From Halarcobacter sp. (lineage in GTDB: Bacteria; Campylobacterota; Campylobacteria; Campylobacterales; Arcobacteraceae): 64,000 nucleotides of DNA. Within the stretch, counting starts at the first letter, position 1; every line of letters begins with the position of its first letter. The notes below the pieces were generated by a model. It was not told the origin of the DNA, searched no databases, and saw only the letters and a list, made by a program, of their open reading frames with translations. The stretch spans positions 1,536,001 through 1,600,000 of the forward strand of contig OY781089.1 in assembly GCA_963676565.1 (NCBI GenBank), read 5' to 3'. Positions 8,380-62,019 of the stretch are shown here, one piece after another. The translations under genes were made by a program, and so were the position numbers.

Positions 8380-8492
8380 TTATTTCCTTTGGAGGAATTA
8401 TATTTGCATTTAGATTAAAAAAGTAAAGTAATCAAAGTTAAATAAGGTTTATTTAACTTAATTTGATAAATTCAAAAGAAAAAAGTATAAGT

Positions 8493-9950
8493 ATGAAATT
8501 AGATGAATTAAAACTTGAAGTAGACTATTTTCAATTTGATAAAAAGTTTTATGAAAAAGTTAATGCAACACCTTTAAATAATCCTTTCTTAATAAGTTAC
8601 AGTAAAAACGCATGTGATTTAATCAATTTAGATTACGAAGAATGTGAAACCAAAGATTTTGTAAAATTTATTAATGGTCAAAAAGTTTTAGAAGGTAGTA
8701 TCCCTTTTGCAATGGCATATGCAGGTCATCAGTTTGGATATTTTGTTCCACAGCTTGGTGATGGAAGAGCTATAAATCTTGGACATATAAATAATTGGCA
8801 TCTTCAAACAAAAGGCTCAGGGCTTACAAAGTATTCAAGACAAGGAGATGGAAGAGCAGTTTTAAGGTCATCCATTAGAGAATATATTATAAGTGAAGCA
8901 ATGAACGCTCTAGAAATCCCTACGACAAGAGCCTTAGCCTTAATTGGTTCAACTCATTTTGTTTATAGAAATTATATGGAAAAAGAAACAGGTGCAATTG
9001 TTTTAAGATTATCTCCTTCTTGGGTTAGAATAGGAACCTTTGAGTTTTTCTCAAGGGGACGTGAACCTGAAAACAATCTAAGACAATTAGCTAATTATGT
9101 TATAAATCAATCATATCCACACCTAAAAAATGATGAGAATAAATACGAGAAGATGTATTTTGAATTAGTTGATGAAAGTGCAAAACTATTGGCTCAATGG
9201 ATGGCTTATGGTTTCCAACATGGGGTTATAAACACTGATAATTTTTCAATGGCAGGACTTACTATTGATTATGGACCTTTTGCTTTTATGGATCAGTTCT
9301 CAAAACATTCTATTTGTAATCATACAGATATGGAAGGAAGATATTCATATAACAATCAGCCTGAGATTGCTAGATGGAATTTAGAAGTTTTAGCATATAA
9401 CCTTGGTAAGATTTGCAGTTTTCAAAAACTAATGTCATATTTAAAAACATTTATGTCTAAACAACAAGAAGAGTACTTAAAAATTATGAATGAAAGATTG
9501 GGTTTAGATATAAATTTAAGTGATGATGAAAACTTAGATTTAATGATTGCTTTACTTGAGGCTTTAGAAGAAGCAAAGATAGACTATAATTGTTTTTTTT
9601 ATGAGCTTACAAAACTAGAAAGTTTTGATAATATCTCATCAATTTTAGATATAGCTGTATTTAGGGCTCCTTTAGAAAGTTGGTTTGAGAAATATAAAGA
9701 AGCAATAAAAATACAAAAGCAAGATTTTTCAAAAATGAAAGAACTTATGAAAAAAACTAATCCCAAGTTTATAATTAAAAACTACATGCTCCAAGAAGCT
9801 ATAGAAAAAGCTCAAGAGGGTGATTTCTCTTTAGTAAATGATTTATTAAAAATTGCCCAAAACCCTTTTGATGAATATAAAGAGTTTGAAAGATATGCGA
9901 AACCAACACCCCTTGAATACTCAAATATAAAACTTAGTTGTTCCTCTTAA
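8493..9950 (+). CDS. selO: Protein adenylyltransferase SelO/YdiU
   Basis: YAGHQFG, LGDGRA, KGSG.T.YSR.GDGRAVLRSSIRE, HGVINTDN, IDYGPF, C-terminal CSS. ATG 8493 preferred over TTG 8463. Confidence 0.95.
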   Translation: MKLDELKLEVDYFQFDKKFYEKVNATPLNNPFLISYSKNACDLINLDYEECETKDFVKFINGQKVLEGSIPFAMAYAGHQFGYFVPQLGDGRAINLGHINNWHLQTKGSGLTKYSRQGDGRAVLRSSIREYIISEAMNALEIPTTRALALIGSTHFVYRNYMEKETGAIVLRLSPSWVRIGTFEFFSRGREPENNLRQLANYVINQSYPHLKNDENKYEKMYFELVDESAKLLAQWMAYGFQHGVINTDNFSMAGLTIDYGPFAFMDQFSKHSICNHTDMEGRYSYNNQPEIARWNLEVLAYNLGKICSFQKLMSYLKTFMSKQQEEYLKIMNERLGLDINLSDDENLDLMIALLEALEEAKIDYNCFFYELTKLESFDNISSILDIAVFRAPLESWFEKYKEAIKIQKQDFSKMKELMKKTNPKFIIKNYMLQEAIEKAQEGDFSLVNDLLKIAQNPFDEYKEFERYAKPTPLEYSNIKLSCSS

Positions 9951-19583: not shown

Positions 19584-21572
19584 TTAATCTAGATAATCAA
19601 ATAGATTAGAAGGAGCCTTTTCTTTGAAAGGAGAAATTAACTTATAGGCTTCTTTTATATACCAATCATAGTTTAGATTTTTAAAATCAAAATCTTTACT
19701 ATCGTTGCAAATACTAACTAGAAAACCTACATTTATACCTATGATTCTTTCTTCAGTATCATTTTTTAAAGGAGGTAAGGTTTTCTTTAATGCTTTACCA
19801 TTTGTTGAAATATAGTATCTTATTGTATTTTGTAAACTTATGTACTCTTTTTTTGTTTTGCTATTTTCTTCTAAAACAAGTTTTATACCTCTTGTAGCTT
19901 TATAATTTAACATAAAATCAAATGGGTCTTTATGATTTAAAATAGTTTCTTCAATAGGAATATTTTTTATCAAAAATGCTTCAACTGCTTTTTGAACCAC
20001 CAAACTTGAATGGTTTTGATGCCATTCAAGGCTATCTTTATAAGCCCCAATTTTTTTAACACCACCATCTTTTTTTAGGGCAATATAATTGTTTACATCT
20101 CTAATCCAAATTTTCTCATAAAAACTTTCTTCTAAAACCATACCTGTAATATCTTCCCACTCTTTTAAGATACTAAAGAAAAGTTCTTTTTCTTTTCTAG
20201 GTACTTTTAAAGTTAGACCATCTGTATTTGCTTGGATTAGAAGAATTGAATCAATCTTAAGTTTTAGCATTTCAGATAGTAAACAAAGCATCAATTGACC
20301 ATTTAAAGTAATAGTTATAGTCATTTTATAATCATAAAATGGGCTAAACTTGTTATTTGTATCTCCATAACCTGCAGAGTTTAATGCAAGTTTTAACATC
20401 TTGTTTTGTGGCATGCTTTTATCATATGAAAATCTTAGTTTTCTAATCTCATCATAAATATCTGCAAACTCCTCTCCTAAGTGTTCTGGATAAAGTCTAT
20501 TTTTTACAACAATACTTGGATAATAACTTGCAACATCAACATCAATGATTTCAAACTCTTCATCACTTTGTAAAAAGCAACTTTCCAAGCTTCCATGTAA
20601 ACCACCCGTTCCAATATCAACTCTAAAATTATCAAAAAATACATGTAAACTTGAGGCTTTGCCATTTTTATTTATGTGAATATAGTCTGCTAATTCTCCT
20701 AAGTTCTCTTTTGGAATATTTGAAAAAACCATTGACATATCATTTGTATATTGCTTTTTTAAATATTCAAGTAAAGCTTGTAATTGAGGTGTTTGAAATT
20801 TTATATAAGAAAATATGATTTGTGAAAAATCAAGATAGTTTCTAATTGTTTGTCTAGGTTTTCCGTCTTTGTAGCAAATATCCTTTCCAAGTTTATCTTC
20901 AAGGTTTCTAATAAAGTATCTTTTACCTATTTTTGTATCACTATAGTTCATCATATTTTCATTAAATTCTAAACTTAGCTTTTCTCTAAAACCTATGGCA
21001 TCCTTTGAATGATTAAAAAATTTAGTAGTTGCTTTTACATCGTGGATATTGTAAGCTATAAGAGTATCAAAATCTTTGCTTTGAAGTTTAGTTCCAGGTG
21101 GAAAGGGCAAGTCTTCAATATTTTCCATTCGCATGTTTATCTCTAACATTTTTAAACTAACCATAGTAGCTCTATAATCAAAATTATGAACTTTCATTAG
21201 ATCTACTTGATTTAGGATTATACTTTTTTTATCTTCTATGTAGTTTTTATTTTCTTTGATTAATTTGTTCGCATAATTATAAATCTCATAAGTGATTTTT
21301 TCTTCAGCATTTTTTTCTTTCTCTAGATTTTGAAAATTTGAGCTATAAATAAATTGTAAAATAGGGTAGTCAAAATTTAAATTGTTATAACCAACTAAGG
21401 CTTTATCATTTTTATTTAGCCAAAGAAGAGTTTGCAATAGTTTATTTAAATCATTTTTCCTTGAACTTATTTCAAATACTCTTGTTTCACCACTTTGAAT
21501 ATTTTGAATAACACAGGTGAAAATATTTGGATAAGTTTCTAAATCATATGAATAATATCTATTTTCAATCAA
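19584..21572 (-). CDS. Family B DNA polymerase with 3'-5' exonuclease, phage-like
   Basis: ExoI YDLETYPN, ExoII GYNNLNFDY, ExoIII YNIHDV; GTGGLHG; motif A DVDVASYYPS, motif B KLALNSAGYG, motif C QANTDG, RDVNNY; TTG start with AAGGA SD. Confidence 0.9.
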   Translation of the reverse strand: MIENRYYSYDLETYPNIFTCVIQNIQSGETRVFEISSRKNDLNKLLQTLLWLNKNDKALVGYNNLNFDYPILQFIYSSNFQNLEKEKNAEEKITYEIYNYANKLIKENKNYIEDKKSIILNQVDLMKVHNFDYRATMVSLKMLEINMRMENIEDLPFPPGTKLQSKDFDTLIAYNIHDVKATTKFFNHSKDAIGFREKLSLEFNENMMNYSDTKIGKRYFIRNLEDKLGKDICYKDGKPRQTIRNYLDFSQIIFSYIKFQTPQLQALLEYLKKQYTNDMSMVFSNIPKENLGELADYIHINKNGKASSLHVFFDNFRVDIGTGGLHGSLESCFLQSDEEFEIIDVDVASYYPSIVVKNRLYPEHLGEEFADIYDEIRKLRFSYDKSMPQNKMLKLALNSAGYGDTNNKFSPFYDYKMTITITLNGQLMLCLLSEMLKLKIDSILLIQANTDGLTLKVPRKEKELFFSILKEWEDITGMVLEESFYEKIWIRDVNNYIALKKDGGVKKIGAYKDSLEWHQNHSSLVVQKAVEAFLIKNIPIEETILNHKDPFDFMLNYKATRGIKLVLEENSKTKKEYISLQNTIRYYISTNGKALKKTLPPLKNDTEERIIGINVGFLVSICNDSKDFDFKNLNYDWYIKEAYKLISPFKEKAPSNLFDYLD

Positions 21573-22467
21573 TCTTTGATTTTCCTTTTTTTCTTTTTAT
21601 ACTACTTATTAACCCTGAAATTATAACAAGAAATAAACCTACAAAATATATTGTTAAAATTGGTTCATCAAAGAATATTATCAGAAAAAATGCTGATAAA
21701 ATAGGTGTTATAAATATAAAAGGTGCTACCTTTGAAGCATCAAAGGTTTTTAAAGCTTTTACCCAAAATAAATATGAAACACCATTTAAAAATGCACCAT
21801 TGATTAAAATACTTATCCAATCTTTAGCAGAAGGTAAAGTAAATTCTGAGAAAGATTGAACACTAATTATTGAGTAGATTATGGCAGAGAAAAAGTAAAT
21901 CATAACTGCATTAGTAGCATTAACTTTTACAATTTTACTTAATACAGAAAATAGTGCAAAAGAAATTGCCCCAAGCATCACGATTAGTAAAACATCAATT
22001 TGCCCAAAGTCTAAACTTGTAAAGTCACCTTTTGTAATTACTAAGCTAACTCCTAAAAAACCTAATACTACTGAGAGTATTTTTTTCTTTGTGAACTCTT
22101 CTTTTAATATAATTAAAGATAAAAAAACAATAAATATAGGCCACATATATTGTATAACCAAAACCTCTAAACCATTTGCATGTTTATATCCAAAGTATAA
22201 AAGTAAGTAGTAAAAGAAATCTAAGAACCCTAAAGCAAATAAAACTAAAACAATTTTTTTTGAGTAATAATATATCTCTTTTAAATTTTTTTCAAACAAA
22301 GATACTATAAGAATTGAAAGAAAAGAGATAATAGATGAATAAAAAAGGTATTGGTGATGATCTAAACCAGTTTGTGCGAATTTTGCAACAGTTGGAATTA
22401 GTGACCAAAGAAGAATACATAAAGCAATATAAATTATACCAATAGTTGATTCACTAAGATTTTTCAT
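21565..22467 (-). CDS. EamA/DMT family transporter
   Basis: About 10 TM helices in two repeats; LLWS, QYMWP, ALFSVL, SYLFW..AL, FITP. Confidence 0.92.
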   Translation of the reverse strand: MKNLSESTIGIIYIALCILLWSLIPTVAKFAQTGLDHHQYLFYSSIISFLSILIVSLFEKNLKEIYYYSKKIVLVLFALGFLDFFYYLLLYFGYKHANGLEVLVIQYMWPIFIVFLSLIILKEEFTKKKILSVVLGFLGVSLVITKGDFTSLDFGQIDVLLIVMLGAISFALFSVLSKIVKVNATNAVMIYFFSAIIYSIISVQSFSEFTLPSAKDWISILINGAFLNGVSYLFWVKALKTFDASKVAPFIFITPILSAFFLIIFFDEPILTIYFVGLFLVIISGLISSIKRKKGKSKID

Positions 22468-59382: not shown

Positions 59383-61356
59383 ATGAGTAAATTTAAAGTA
59401 AAAACCCAATATGAACCAGCTGGTGATCAACCTAATGCAATAAAGCAAATAAGTGATTCAATCTTAAGTGGAAACAAATATACAACCCTTGAAGGTGTAA
59501 CAGGCTCTGGTAAAACATATACCATGGCAAAGGTTATTGAAAAAACCCAAATGCCAACACTTATCATGACACACAATAAAACCTTAGCTGCACAGTTATA
59601 TAGTGAATTTAAATCATTTTTCCCAAATAATCATGTTGAATATTTTATCTCTTATTATGATTATTATCAGCCTGAAGCATATATTCCAAGAACTGATTTA
59701 TTTATTGAAAAAGATTCATCTATAAATGCCGAACTTGAAAGACTAAGACTTAGTGCAACGGCTTCACTGCTTAGTTTTGATGATGTAATAGTAATTGCTT
59801 CAGTATCTGCAAATTATGGTTTAGGTAATCCTGAAGAGTATAAAGCTATGGTTCAAAGAATAGAAGTAGGCTTTGAATATTCTCAAAGAGAGTTTTTACT
59901 AAAACTAGTTGAAATGGGTTATAAAAGAAATGATTCTTTTTTTGATAGAGCAGATTTTAGGGTAAACGGCGATGTTATTGATATCTTCCCTGCTTATTAT
60001 GAAGATGAATATATAAGAGTTGAGTTTTTTGGTGATGAGGTTGAGTCTATTACCAAACACGAGTATTTAACAAATGAAAAAACAAAAGAGCTAGAAGAGG
60101 TAATTATCTATTCAGTAAACCCTTTTGTTGTTTCAAATGATAGATTGGCAATTGCAGTTAAAAATATTGAAGAGGAACTTGATGAAAGACTTCAATTTTT
60201 TGAAAAAGAGGATAAAAGAGTAGAGTATCAAAGATTAAAACAAAGGGTTGAATTTGACCTTGAGATGATTGAAGGTACTGGAATGTGTAAAGGTATTGAA
60301 AATTATGCAAGACATTTAACTGGTCAAAAGCCAGGTGAAACTCCATACTCTCTTATGAATTATTTTGAACAAATGGGGAAAGATTTTTTACTTATTGTTG
60401 ATGAATCTCACGTTTCTTTACCTCAATTTAGAGGGATGCATGCAGCAGATAGAAGTAGAAAAGAGGTTTTAGTTGAATATGGATTTAGACTTCCAAGTGC
60501 TTTAGATAACAGACCATTGAAATTTGATGAATTTATAAATAAGGCTCCAAACTTTTTATTTGTTAGTGCGACCCCTGCAGATTTAGAATTAGAAAAAAGT
60601 GAGGTTGTGGCTCGTCAGATTATTAGACCAACTGGACTTTTAGATCCAGTTATTGAGATAATGGATTCTGAATATCAAGTAGAAAAACTACATGATGAAA
60701 TAAAAAAAGTAATTGAAAAAAATGAGAGAGTATTAGTAACTGTTCTAACAAAAAAAATGGCAGAGGAGTTAAGTTCTTATTATTCAGATTTAGGAATAAA
60801 AGTTAAATATATGCATTCTGATATTGATGCAATTGAAAGAAATCAAATTATTAGGGAATTAAGACAAGGTGAGTTCGATGTTTTAGTTGGGATTAACCTT
60901 TTAAGGGAAGGTCTTGATATTCCTGAAACTTCACTTGTAGCTATTTTAGATGCAGATAAAGAAGGTTTCTTAAGATCTAGAACATCTTTAGTTCAAACTA
61001 TGGGTAGAGCAGCAAGAAATCAAAATGGTAGGGTTATTTTATTTGCAAAAAAAATAACAGATTCTATGCAATATGCGATTGATTTAACAAATGAAAGAAG
61101 AGAGATTCAAGAGGCATATAATAAAGAACATGGGATAACACCAACAACAACAACTAGAGCATTAGATGAAAATCTAAAAATGGAAGAGTATGATGATGTT
61201 GCATGGAAAAGGGAAAAAATGAATAAAATTCCAGCAGCAGAAAGAAAGAAAATATTAATCGAATTAAATAAAGCTATGTCAAAGGCTGCTAAAGACTTGA
61301 ATTTTGAAGAAGCTATTAGATTACGAGACCAGATAGAAAAAATAAAAAAAGCGTAA
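59383..61356 (+). CDS. uvrB: Excinuclease ABC subunit B
   Basis: [44 protein letters not shown]. Confidence 0.99.
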
Positions 61357-61365
61357 AGGATTAAT

Positions 61366-62019
61366 TTGCCAAGATTAAAAAAAGCTACAAAAGAAGAGAT
61401 TCAAATTATAAAAGAAGCTTTTCAAGAAAACTTTTCAGATGCAGTTACAGAATTAAATTATAGAAATGATTATGAGTTATTAATAGCAATTATACTTTCG
61501 GCTCAATGTACAGATAAAAGGGTAAATATTATTACACCTGCACTTTTTGAGAAATATCCTTCTGTTTTTGAGCTTGCTGATGCCAATCTTGAAGATGTAA
61601 AAGATTTACTTAAATCTTGTTCTTTTTTCAATAACAAATCAAAAAATATAATTAAAATGGCTCAAAGTGTAATAGCTGATTTTGATGGAGAAATACCCCA
61701 TGATCAAAAAAAACTTATAAAACTTGCAGGGGTAGGGAATAAAACTGCAAATGTATTTATGATTGAATTTGAGGGTGCAAACTTGATGGCTGTTGATACT
61801 CATGTATTTAGAGTTTCTCATAGATTAGGACTTTCATATGAAAAAACAGTTGAAAAAACAGAAGCTGAATTGGTGAAAAAATTGAAAGATGATTTACATA
61901 TATTCCACCAAGCTATGGTATTGTTTGGAAGATATACTTGTAAAGCCTTAAGTCCAGAATGTGATAAATGTTTATTCCCACATGTTTGCAAAACTAAAAA
62001 ATCTTTTAAACCTCAATAA
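61366..62019 (+). CDS. nth: Endonuclease III
   Basis: LSAQCTD, L.GVG.KTANV, VDTHV.R, CX6CX2CX5C. Confidence 0.97.
   Translation: MPRLKKATKEEIQIIKEAFQENFSDAVTELNYRNDYELLIAIILSAQCTDKRVNIITPALFEKYPSVFELADANLEDVKDLLKSCSFFNNKSKNIIKMAQSVIADFDGEIPHDQKKLIKLAGVGNKTANVFMIEFEGANLMAVDTHVFRVSHRLGLSYEKTVEKTEAELVKKLKDDLHIFHQAMVLFGRYTCKALSPECDKCLFPHVCKTKKSFKPQ

Follow-up and report, generated by a model that had tools for sequence, protein, structure and literature searches.

The stretch of DNA analyzed here, hereafter called the window, comprises 64,000 nucleotides (64 kb) from the chromosome of Halarcobacter sp., a member of the Arcobacteraceae within the Campylobacterota (contig OY781089.1, positions 1,536,001 to 1,600,000), and contains a solitary gene for a family B DNA polymerase (PolB) whose nearest relatives are the polymerases of tailed phages. 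Both the phage ancestry of this gene and its capture are well supported by sequence comparison, and the reading that we favour on balance is that the protein is a domesticated phage replicase acting as an accessory polymerase tethered to the sliding clamp, comparable in this respect to Pol II of Escherichia coli. This reading is built upon the nesting of a single Arcobacteraceae clade among phage-type sequences, the strong purifying selection acting upon its members and a short C-terminal tail that is specific to them.

Phage Ancestry of the Polymerase

A search with tblastn retrieved 932 phage records matching the polymerase, 674 of which cover at least 80% of the query, all with less than 60% identity. 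The best matches belong to Sashavirus and related siphophages of Escherichia, Salmonella, Klebsiella and Proteus (41-42% identity), the top one being 42% identical across 97% of the length. The nearest clusters of the ESM Atlas are 83-100% viral, and among the viral contigs of IMG/VR nothing exceeded 39% identity in the 14 loci recovered with a scan for exact peptide patterns, which performs best for near relatives. In the phage-type outgroup the polymerase is surrounded by a phage replication module in all six loci that were sampled, the modules including phrog_69 exonuclease, Gp2.5-like single-stranded DNA-binding protein (SSB), primase, phrog_16/62 helicase, endolysin, tail fibre or integrase; the same replication-module arrangement is present around the polymerase of phage Sasha.

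One Arcobacteraceae genome of 86% completeness and 7% contamination (G170) contains two copies of phage type (L035 and L039), which are 33-34% identical and fall outside the bacterial clade. These copies may represent prophage or phage contigs.

Catalytic Motifs and Fold

The gene lies on the minus strand, and its translation of 662 residues contains every exonuclease (Exo) and polymerase (Pol) motif that had been named, without mention of the strand, in the first-pass annotation of the open reading frame (ORF). The motifs are collected in table 1, to which GGLHG (residues 323-327) and DVNNY (residues 492-496) can be added. The conservation of catalytic residues was read from an alignment of 60 family sequences, comprising the bacterial clade together with its phage homologues, in which D10, E12, D68, Y174, D178, D346, K394 and N449-T450-D451-G452 show at least 90% conservation or no variation at all. 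In profile-PDB alignments, motif A falls opposite DxxSLYPS of archaeal PolB. The first Asp of the canonical DTD in motif C is instead Asn throughout the phage family, and as judged from the alignment the single-Asp form NTDG is a trait of that entire family and no defect of the window copy. The piPolBs are likewise described, in passages of PMC7544198, as lacking the first Asp of motif C and yet being active.

Standard domain libraries hardly recognize this protein. The Pfam scan gave only a sub-threshold match with PF10108 (E 0.0036) and none with PF00136 (DNA_pol_B), and no match to the polymerase was found in NCBIfam or, with phmmer, among PDB sequences; the proteins of the clade are mostly labelled 'hypothetical protein' in databases. 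The PHROGs collection does recognize it as phrog_1252 'DNA polymerase' (E 3.7e-170), with residues 4-652 aligned to positions 52-654 of the 663 of the profile. A profile built from the 60 family members reaches solved archaeal PolBs with E 2.5e-8 across palm, fingers and thumb, the exonuclease domain of RB69 polymerase with E 5e-4 and E. coli Pol II with E 0.013; phi29 polymerase was not reached by this profile.

The AlphaFold model of the protein has a predicted local distance difference test (pLDDT) value of 91.7 and a predicted template modelling (pTM) score of 0.86, and its best-ranked fold matches, obtained with Foldseek and VIA-align, are all family B polymerases. Foldseek gave E values of about 1e-14 to the 9°N, KOD and Tgo polymerases, and the Z scores of VIA-align were 13.8 for the polymerase of HSV-1, 13.5 for Pol alpha, 13.2 for Pyrobaculum PolB, 13.1 for RB69, 11.2 for phi29 (360 aligned residues) and 10.8 for E. 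coli Pol II. Residue 1 of the model aligns to about residue 104-160 in RB69, Pol II and the enzymes of archaea, and Exo I is reached as early as residue 10; the protein therefore lacks a canonical N-terminal domain and consists of Exo and Pol portions only. Taken at the level of sequence and predicted structure, it is an intact proofreading family B DNA polymerase in which both active sites are whole.

Distribution, Phylogeny and Selection

An initial draw of related genomes contained the gene in 7 of 61, the window's own counted, and 24 other families of the order, sampled with one genome each, all lacked it. Among 184 Arcobacteraceae genomes 25 gave a match, and when the phage-type sequences of G170 are set aside there remain 24 with the gene of the clade type. 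Leaving out the window's genome, these are distributed over genera as 4 of 24 (g1), 5 of 6 (g3), 8 of 11 (g7), 5 of 28 (g12) and 1 of 2 (g13), so that the gene is nearly universal in the two genera g3 and g7. A collection of 5.8 billion proteins yielded 48 clusters with at least 59% identity, of which the named ones are Arcobacter, Poseidonibacter and Campylobacterota, the next clusters being at most 46% identical; after clustering at 50%, the whole clade forms one cluster among 4813 related clusters. Similarly, 22 of 79 loci found in species genomes are at least 60% identical to the window protein, 21 of them with Arcobacteraceae or Campylobacterota-type titles, and the remaining 57 are 30-42% identical and lie mostly on contigs of 30-45 kb from metagenome-assembled genomes (MAGs). 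Two fragments of the clade type, 63-65% identical, carry other names, one being a 2.4-kb contig from a 'Draconibacterium' MAG (L094), which makes up the 22 loci just mentioned, and the other a protein from an Erysipelotrichia MAG (P0050); most likely they are mis-binned Arcobacteraceae DNA rather than cases of transfer.

Phylogenetic trees of 84 rows, 35 of which are Arcobacteraceae, place all these 35 on one side of a single branch, with a value of 100 in the Shimodaira-Hasegawa-like approximate likelihood ratio test (SH-aLRT) of a quick tree and 100/100 for ultrafast bootstrap (UFBoot) and SH-aLRT in a careful tree. The clade is embedded in phage-type sequences on a stem whose length is 0.53 substitutions per site, its end branches measuring 0.00-0.19 in comparison with 0.06-1.2 in the outgroup. 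This topology indicates a single origin for the Arcobacteraceae polymerases, which on present sequences are restricted to that family. Within the clade, the copies of two genomes belonging to the window's genus (G004 and G021) nest in genus g7 with 90-95% identity, which means that the gene has at times been transferred inside the family.

The ratio of nonsynonymous to synonymous divergence (dN/dS, or omega) calculated by the Nei-Gojobori method is 0.03-0.09 in the 45 closest pairs, with dS values up to about 1; it is 0.073 between the window gene and its orthologue in G014 and 0.079 for that in G010. When three syntenic genomes are compared, dS of the polymerase (0.43-0.59) is similar to the values obtained for 14 gene families in the flanks (0.27-0.92), and its omega lies at the low end of the range of the same families (0.03-0.26). 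None of the 22 full-length genomic copies has an interrupted frame, and of the 99 columns with at least 90% conservation among phage homologues the clade retains 91, without any large indel. We considered neofunctionalization by loss of conserved residues and discarded it, since just five changes are fixed in the clade and these are mostly conservative (F62Y, T138V, N211S, S405T and K508I).

These data bear directly upon the idea that the gene is the decaying and functionless leftover of an old prophage. Such an idea would accommodate the phage ancestry and the weak indication of expression, but it is contradicted by the open frames, the low dN/dS at substantial dS and the retention of conserved columns, as well as by the host-like composition of the gene (GC 0.266, GC at third codon positions 0.172 and codon usage ranking 10th of 58 ORFs, all typical for the window), the conserved tail that was gained across the clade and the lack of any further phage gene within 64 kb. 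A dead remnant is excluded by the selection data, and we regard the leftover explanation as very improbable indeed. The earlier proposal that the host has retained a captured phage replicase is instead sustained by our results: dN/dS is far from 1, orthologues do not lie inside prophages in the 19 loci surveyed (see below), and the protein does not belong to the Pol II clade, given the silence of PF00136, the weak match of the family profile to Pol II and the phage polymerases that are its nearest relatives. Transcription, a fourth point raised with that proposal, is weakly indicated (see below).

A Clade-Specific C-Terminal Tail

Phage homologues of the polymerase stop just past a conserved 'EAxKLxxP' helix, whereas all members of the clade extend further to a terminus of the form K-Q-x-[S/N/D]-L-F-D-[F/Y], mostly followed by 0-2 additional residues. 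Of 48 clade clusters, 46 have the LFD[FYL] signature within their last 25 residues, the two exceptional ones ending in LFNF and LFD, while none of 215 full-length outgroup proteins has it, and the more extended pattern QxxLF is found in 33 of the 48 clade clusters as compared with 3 of the 215. Once the sequences are anchored on the LF pair (n = 49), both L and F are present in all of them, position -1 is occupied by S in 26, N in 13 and D in 5 (44 of 49 altogether), position -3 is Q in 33, the next two residues are DF in 38 and DY in 8, and 2-4 residues follow LF in 46. In the window protein the corresponding residues L657, F658 and D659 are invariant among 25 aligned clade sequences, and the segment 652-662 to which they belong is disordered in the model, with pLDDT below 50. 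Neither LFD[FYL] nor QxxLF was found at the C-terminus of any of the 267 other ORFs of at least 150 residues in the same Arcobacteraceae loci.

The bacterial clamp-binding pentapeptide has been described as QL(S/D)LF, located C-terminally in clamp partners, in passages of PMC9690074. The clade tail, with its consensus Q-[EK]-[SND]-L-F, resembles this beta-clamp-binding motif and is thus a candidate for the same function. Four distant phage members of the polymerase family (proteins P0197, P0241 and P0250 and locus L149:9971-11938) have canonical endings, namely QLKLF, QLELF, QLSMF or QLSLFE, from which it follows that C-terminal clamp motifs arose earlier in this family; their sequences suggest that some phages of the polymerase group recruit the host sliding clamp directly. 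The gene of the host clamp, DnaN (L162:1501-2571), adjoins dnaA in the window's genome. The Y-family polymerase of the same genome (429 aa, L155:1489-2778) carries, near its C-terminus, QLNLTV, a plausible clamp-binding hexapeptide.

Proposed Origin and Role

According to the scenario that we propose, an ancestor within the Arcobacteraceae captured the polymerase a single time, the donor being a tailed phage whose polymerase was of the Sashavirus/Nonanavirus-like lineage (phrog_1252), in an event that removed all its phage partners, namely the exonuclease, Gp2.5-like SSB, primase and helicase. The polymerase has since been retained as a host gene, of host-like composition and under strong purifying selection; in the three-species group of the window it was inherited together with the flanking genes, with occasional passage between genera of the family. 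The short disordered tail, gained on the stem of the bacterial clade, may dock the enzyme on the host sliding clamp DnaN, and the enzyme could serve as an accurate accessory polymerase at primer ends arising from the replisome or from repair, for instance in gap filling, restart or repair synthesis, thereby being a functional analogue of E. coli Pol II. For the repair or restart role, as for the binding to the clamp, we infer function from sequence features, and it is for this combination of capture and clamp-tethered accessory function that our preference for the domesticated replicase is expressed.

Because PolA, a Y-family polymerase and a pair of S24 peptidases (LexA/UmuD-like) are also encoded in the genome, the captured polymerase is an addition to the host enzymes and not a replacement of them. 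We have also discarded the possibility that it substitutes for a missing translesion polymerase, since 158 of 184 family genomes encode Y-family polymerases, among them 23 of the 24 genomes with the captured gene.

Several observations weigh against the role that we propose. The window tail, APSNLFDYLD, lacks the Q of the motif (P-S-N-L-F), and the clade has E or K at position 2 where the canonical motif has L; clamp binding by the tail is a candidate function, put forward from its resemblance to the motif. The polymerases and LexA/UmuD-like peptidases already in place leave no obvious gap to be filled, and defence genes lie near the polymerase in other lineages. The gene has a patchy distribution, being present in 24 of the 184 genomes of the family, and the nesting of two copies from the window's genus in another genus is more typical of accessory genes. 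Expression is weakly indicated: contigs of a related strain, one of 680 nt (34 differences) and another of 151 nt, lie within the gene in a metatranscriptome assembly (X1), and they may stem from DNA carry-over. Three raw RNA runs (X19, X22 and X7) gave no reads on the stretch, the presence of the organism in these runs not having been shown.

The Window Locus

The window polymerase is tightly enclosed on both sides. Its start shares 8 nt with the stop of the upstream EamA gene (TTGATTGA), and its stop is separated by 8 nt from that of a convergent gene for a flavodoxin-like protein, so that these junctions leave no room for phage attachment (att) sites. Since the EamA TGA overlaps the start of the polymerase, the two genes probably form one co-transcribed operon, and the same order, with a gap of 3 nt, is present in G014 and G010. 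A scan for promoters and terminators was uninformative, giving 25 promoter-like sites against 30.8 expected.

Table 1. Features of the polymerase gene and its upstream junction, in window coordinates
Feature	Coordinates	Strand	Remarks
EamA-family transporter gene	21565..22467	-	upstream of the polymerase; TGA stop overlapping the polymerase start (TTGATTGA)
AGGA Shine-Dalgarno	21583..21586	-	10 nt 5' of the polymerase TTG start; read from sequence
Family B DNA polymerase gene, 662 aa, phage origin	19584..21572	-	ORF with TTG start; predicted Exo plus palm, fingers and thumb
Exo I DLET, residues 10-13	21534..21545	-	D10 at least 90% conserved, E12 invariant (60-sequence alignment)
Exo II YNNLNFD, residues 62-68	21369..21389	-	D68 invariant (60-sequence alignment)
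Exo III YNIHD, residues 174-178	21039..21053	-	Y174 and D178 invariant (60-sequence alignment)
Pol motif A DVASYYPS, residues 346-353	20514..20537	-	D346, Y351 and P352 invariant (60-sequence alignment)
Pol motif B KLALNSAGYG, residues 394-403	20364..20393	-	K394, N398 and G403 invariant (60-sequence alignment)
Pol motif C ANTDG, residues 448-452	20217..20231	-	N449, T450, D451 and G452 invariant, both in the clade and among phage homologues
Disordered C-terminal tail ...KAPSNLFDYLD, residues 652-662	19587..19619	-	clade-specific L-F-D-[FY]; candidate beta-clamp-binding motif

By Pfam scan, the remaining 57 ORFs of the window are ordinary chromosomal genes, including those for an RND efflux pump, MarR and TetR regulators, a flavodoxin-like reductase, EamA, RraA, NhaA, two-component systems, MalQ, DsbA/DsbB, the Suf and NifS/NifU iron-sulfur systems, UvrB and an HhH-GPD glycosylase. 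The scan revealed no Pfam family of integrases, primases, replicative helicases, terminases or structural proteins among them, there are no tRNA genes in the window and none of eight neighbours of the polymerase matched PADLOC, in agreement with the absence of phage context that the first-pass annotation had reported. The genome, a single contig of 3.34 Mb, contains just this one copy of the polymerase gene. Two genes of the window lie at some distance from the polymerase and can be recorded here: UvrB is adjacent to the HhH-GPD base-excision glycosylase at 59383-62019, about 38 kb away and with no link seen, and the SelO protein adenylyltransferase is encoded at 8463-9950, about 10 kb away.

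Genomic Contexts of Other Arcobacteraceae Copies

The genomic context of the polymerase was surveyed in 19 Arcobacteraceae loci, 16 of which belong to genomes outside the window's three-species group. The annotated neighbours in these 19 loci (Pfam, PADLOC and PHROG) include no structural, terminase, lysis or integrase family, and three non-phage contexts can be distinguished. In the window's three-species group the polymerase follows EamA; in g12 it lies between SoFic and Hsp20; in g3, g7 and two g1 genomes it precedes either a trio of GDSL-lipase, ABC and FtsX genes or a superfamily 2 (SF2) helicase. The EamA orthologues of two other genomes of the same genus, examined in order to reconstruct the empty site, lie in unrelated contexts and thus define no boundary of an insertion. 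Other genes recur around the copies of other lineages. A SelO-like gene that is longer than the SelO gene of the window and distinct from it (572 aa, L043:7209-8927, and its orthologues) is directly beside the polymerase in three loci of g7 and a few genes off in a fourth, and genes for MsrA, Hsp20, DsbA-like proteins and AlkB-like 2-oxoglutarate (2OG) oxygenases seem to give the neighbourhoods a loose flavour of stress response.

The SF2 helicase (447 aa, L011:7574-8917) has ResIII, DEAD and Helicase_C domains, belongs to phrog_16 and has PbeA as its best PADLOC match (E 2.4e-21). Its orthologues are present in 26 of 184 family genomes and are at least 90% identical across genera; in 5 of the 16 loci the gene follows the polymerase immediately, and in a sixth it comes after the inserted GDSL-lipase/ABC/FtsX trio. 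At the level of genomes, 11 have both polymerase and helicase, 13 the polymerase only and 15 the helicase only. We have rejected the possibility that the helicase was captured together with the polymerase, because it is only 22-28% identical to phage helicases, that of Sasha included, has no orthologue in the window's genome (best match 30%) and co-occurs only in part with the polymerase.

This recurrent vicinity, together with the three different contexts, the nesting of the G004 and G021 copies in another genus and a transposase lying 3.3 kb from the G004 copy, could be taken to mean that the polymerase is the replicase of a small unrecognized element or satellite, in some cases comprising the SF2 helicase as well, that is mobile between the chromosomes of Arcobacteraceae. 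We consider this quite improbable, since the window gene is solitary, with 8-nt junctions on both sides that leave no room for the ends of an element, and the annotated flanks show neither integrase nor terminal protein nor any unit bounded by repeats. The single copy in the window's genome, the equality of its dS with that of the flanks in three syntenic genomes and the distance of the helicase from those of phages, as well as its absence from the window's genome, point in the same direction.

A stronger competitor, although weaker than the clamp-tethered polymerase and in our judgement rather unlikely, is that the gene serves in anti-phage defence, for instance by competing for the replication partners of phages, by abortive or aberrant DNA synthesis or by exonucleolytic attack on intermediates of phage replication. 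In G026 a complete Hachiman system lies about 6 kb from the polymerase (L013:5-3266; PADLOC E 8.9e-86 for HamA and 1.8e-290 for HamB), and in G162 SoFic (L040:7808-8878, E 8.5e-116) is immediately upstream on the same strand, with the same family found in G159 and G161. SoFic is preceded by a large helicase of variable length, which has 1620 aa with DpdF- and GajB-like parts in G162 (L040:2874-7736) and 538 and 785 aa in G159 and G161, and PDC-S05 and HipA are near the polymerase in G021. The patchy distribution of the gene, its transfer inside the family and the adjacent helicase with its match to PbeA would also fit a defensive function. None of the models of PADLOC-DB 2.0, however, matches the polymerase itself or any of its eight window neighbours, and clear named systems are present in 3 of 8 scanned loci, a frequency not clearly above chance for an interval of ±10 kb. 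Neighbours moreover vary by lineage, so that there is no conserved partner, the helicase itself accompanying the polymerase in 11 of 24 genomes and occurring alone in 15. The slow evolution of the polymerase, with low omega and short branches, and its near fixation in two genera are unlike those of typical defence genes, and a role in defence leaves the clamp-like tail unexplained. The clamp-tethered accessory polymerase thus retains our preference.

Comparison with Known Polymerases and Significance

The closest known relatives of the Arcobacteraceae polymerase are those of Sashavirus/Nonanavirus-like siphophages, for instance gp62 of Salmonella phage vB_SenS_Sasha, with which it shares about 42% identity over its full length, the same length class, the motifs Exo I-III and Pol A, B and C, including NTDG, and the Exo plus Pol architecture. 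It differs from them in being a solitary chromosomal gene, whereas theirs is accompanied, in a replication module, by the genes for exonuclease, Gp2.5-like SSB, primase and helicase, and in having the additional LFD[FY] tail and, at the level of the clade, much shorter branches.

E. coli Pol II ends in a C-terminal clamp-binding motif. It resembles the Arcobacteraceae enzyme in being a proofreading family B polymerase encoded by a single accessory gene of the chromosome, and the two may be alike also in their mode of working, if our proposal is right. The viral introduction of Pol II and its group G1 has been proposed by Kazlauskas et al. 2020, as stated in passages of PMC7544198. The window protein is nevertheless clearly different from Pol II: it is not seen by PF00136, the family profile reaches Pol II only with E 0.013, and the fold match to Pol II, with a Z score of 10.8, is below those to the herpesvirus, Pol alpha and RB69 enzymes. 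It also lacks the N-terminal domain, has NTDG instead of DTDS in motif C, derives from another donor phage lineage and is restricted to one bacterial family. The statement of the first-pass annotation that the well-studied Campylobacterota lack Pol II agrees with our survey of PF00136, which gave three weak partial matches in 201 genomes of the class and none in the window's genome.

The piPolBs of pipolins and the phi29-like polymerases are also small PolBs without an N-terminal domain, and the piPolBs share the loss of the first Asp in motif C. With respect to phi29, the family profile reaches archaeal, RB69 and Pol alpha-type enzymes but not phi29, to which the fold match is both lower and shorter (Z 11.2 over 360 residues); with respect to pipolins, neither integrase nor repeats are seen in the context of the window gene.

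Family B polymerases are rare in bacteria and thought to be of viral descent, according to portions of PMC7544198 and PMC11348598, a view that the former extends to the bacterial groups G1-G3. From its sequence, the acquisition described here is the same kind of event as the capture of G1 type and yet appears independent of it, the comparison having been made with Pol II (G1). A search of the full-text literature, with subscription-only papers and supplements outside its scope, found no publication on a family B polymerase of Arcobacteraceae. More tentatively than the domesticated accessory polymerase, we put forward as a serious possibility that it represents a recent and traceable replay of a Pol II-like acquisition, in which a single gene was captured, was connected to the host replisome by evolving a handle for the sliding clamp and now serves one family of Campylobacterota as a proofreading accessory polymerase tethered to that clamp.

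The known captures of PolB by bacteria are old and their donors unclear, whereas in the present case the donor lineage is identifiable. With an identifiable donor, a capture limited to one family and one derived tail, the conversion of a viral replicase into a host enzyme becomes directly testable. If our reading is true, the stepwise course of this conversion, that is the loss of phage partners, the gain of the tail and the slowing of evolution, could be reconstructed, because phage relatives of the polymerase are still extant. The finding would also add an unannotated polymerase, of a family to which Pfam and NCBIfam are blind, to the DNA-maintenance repertoire of Arcobacteraceae.

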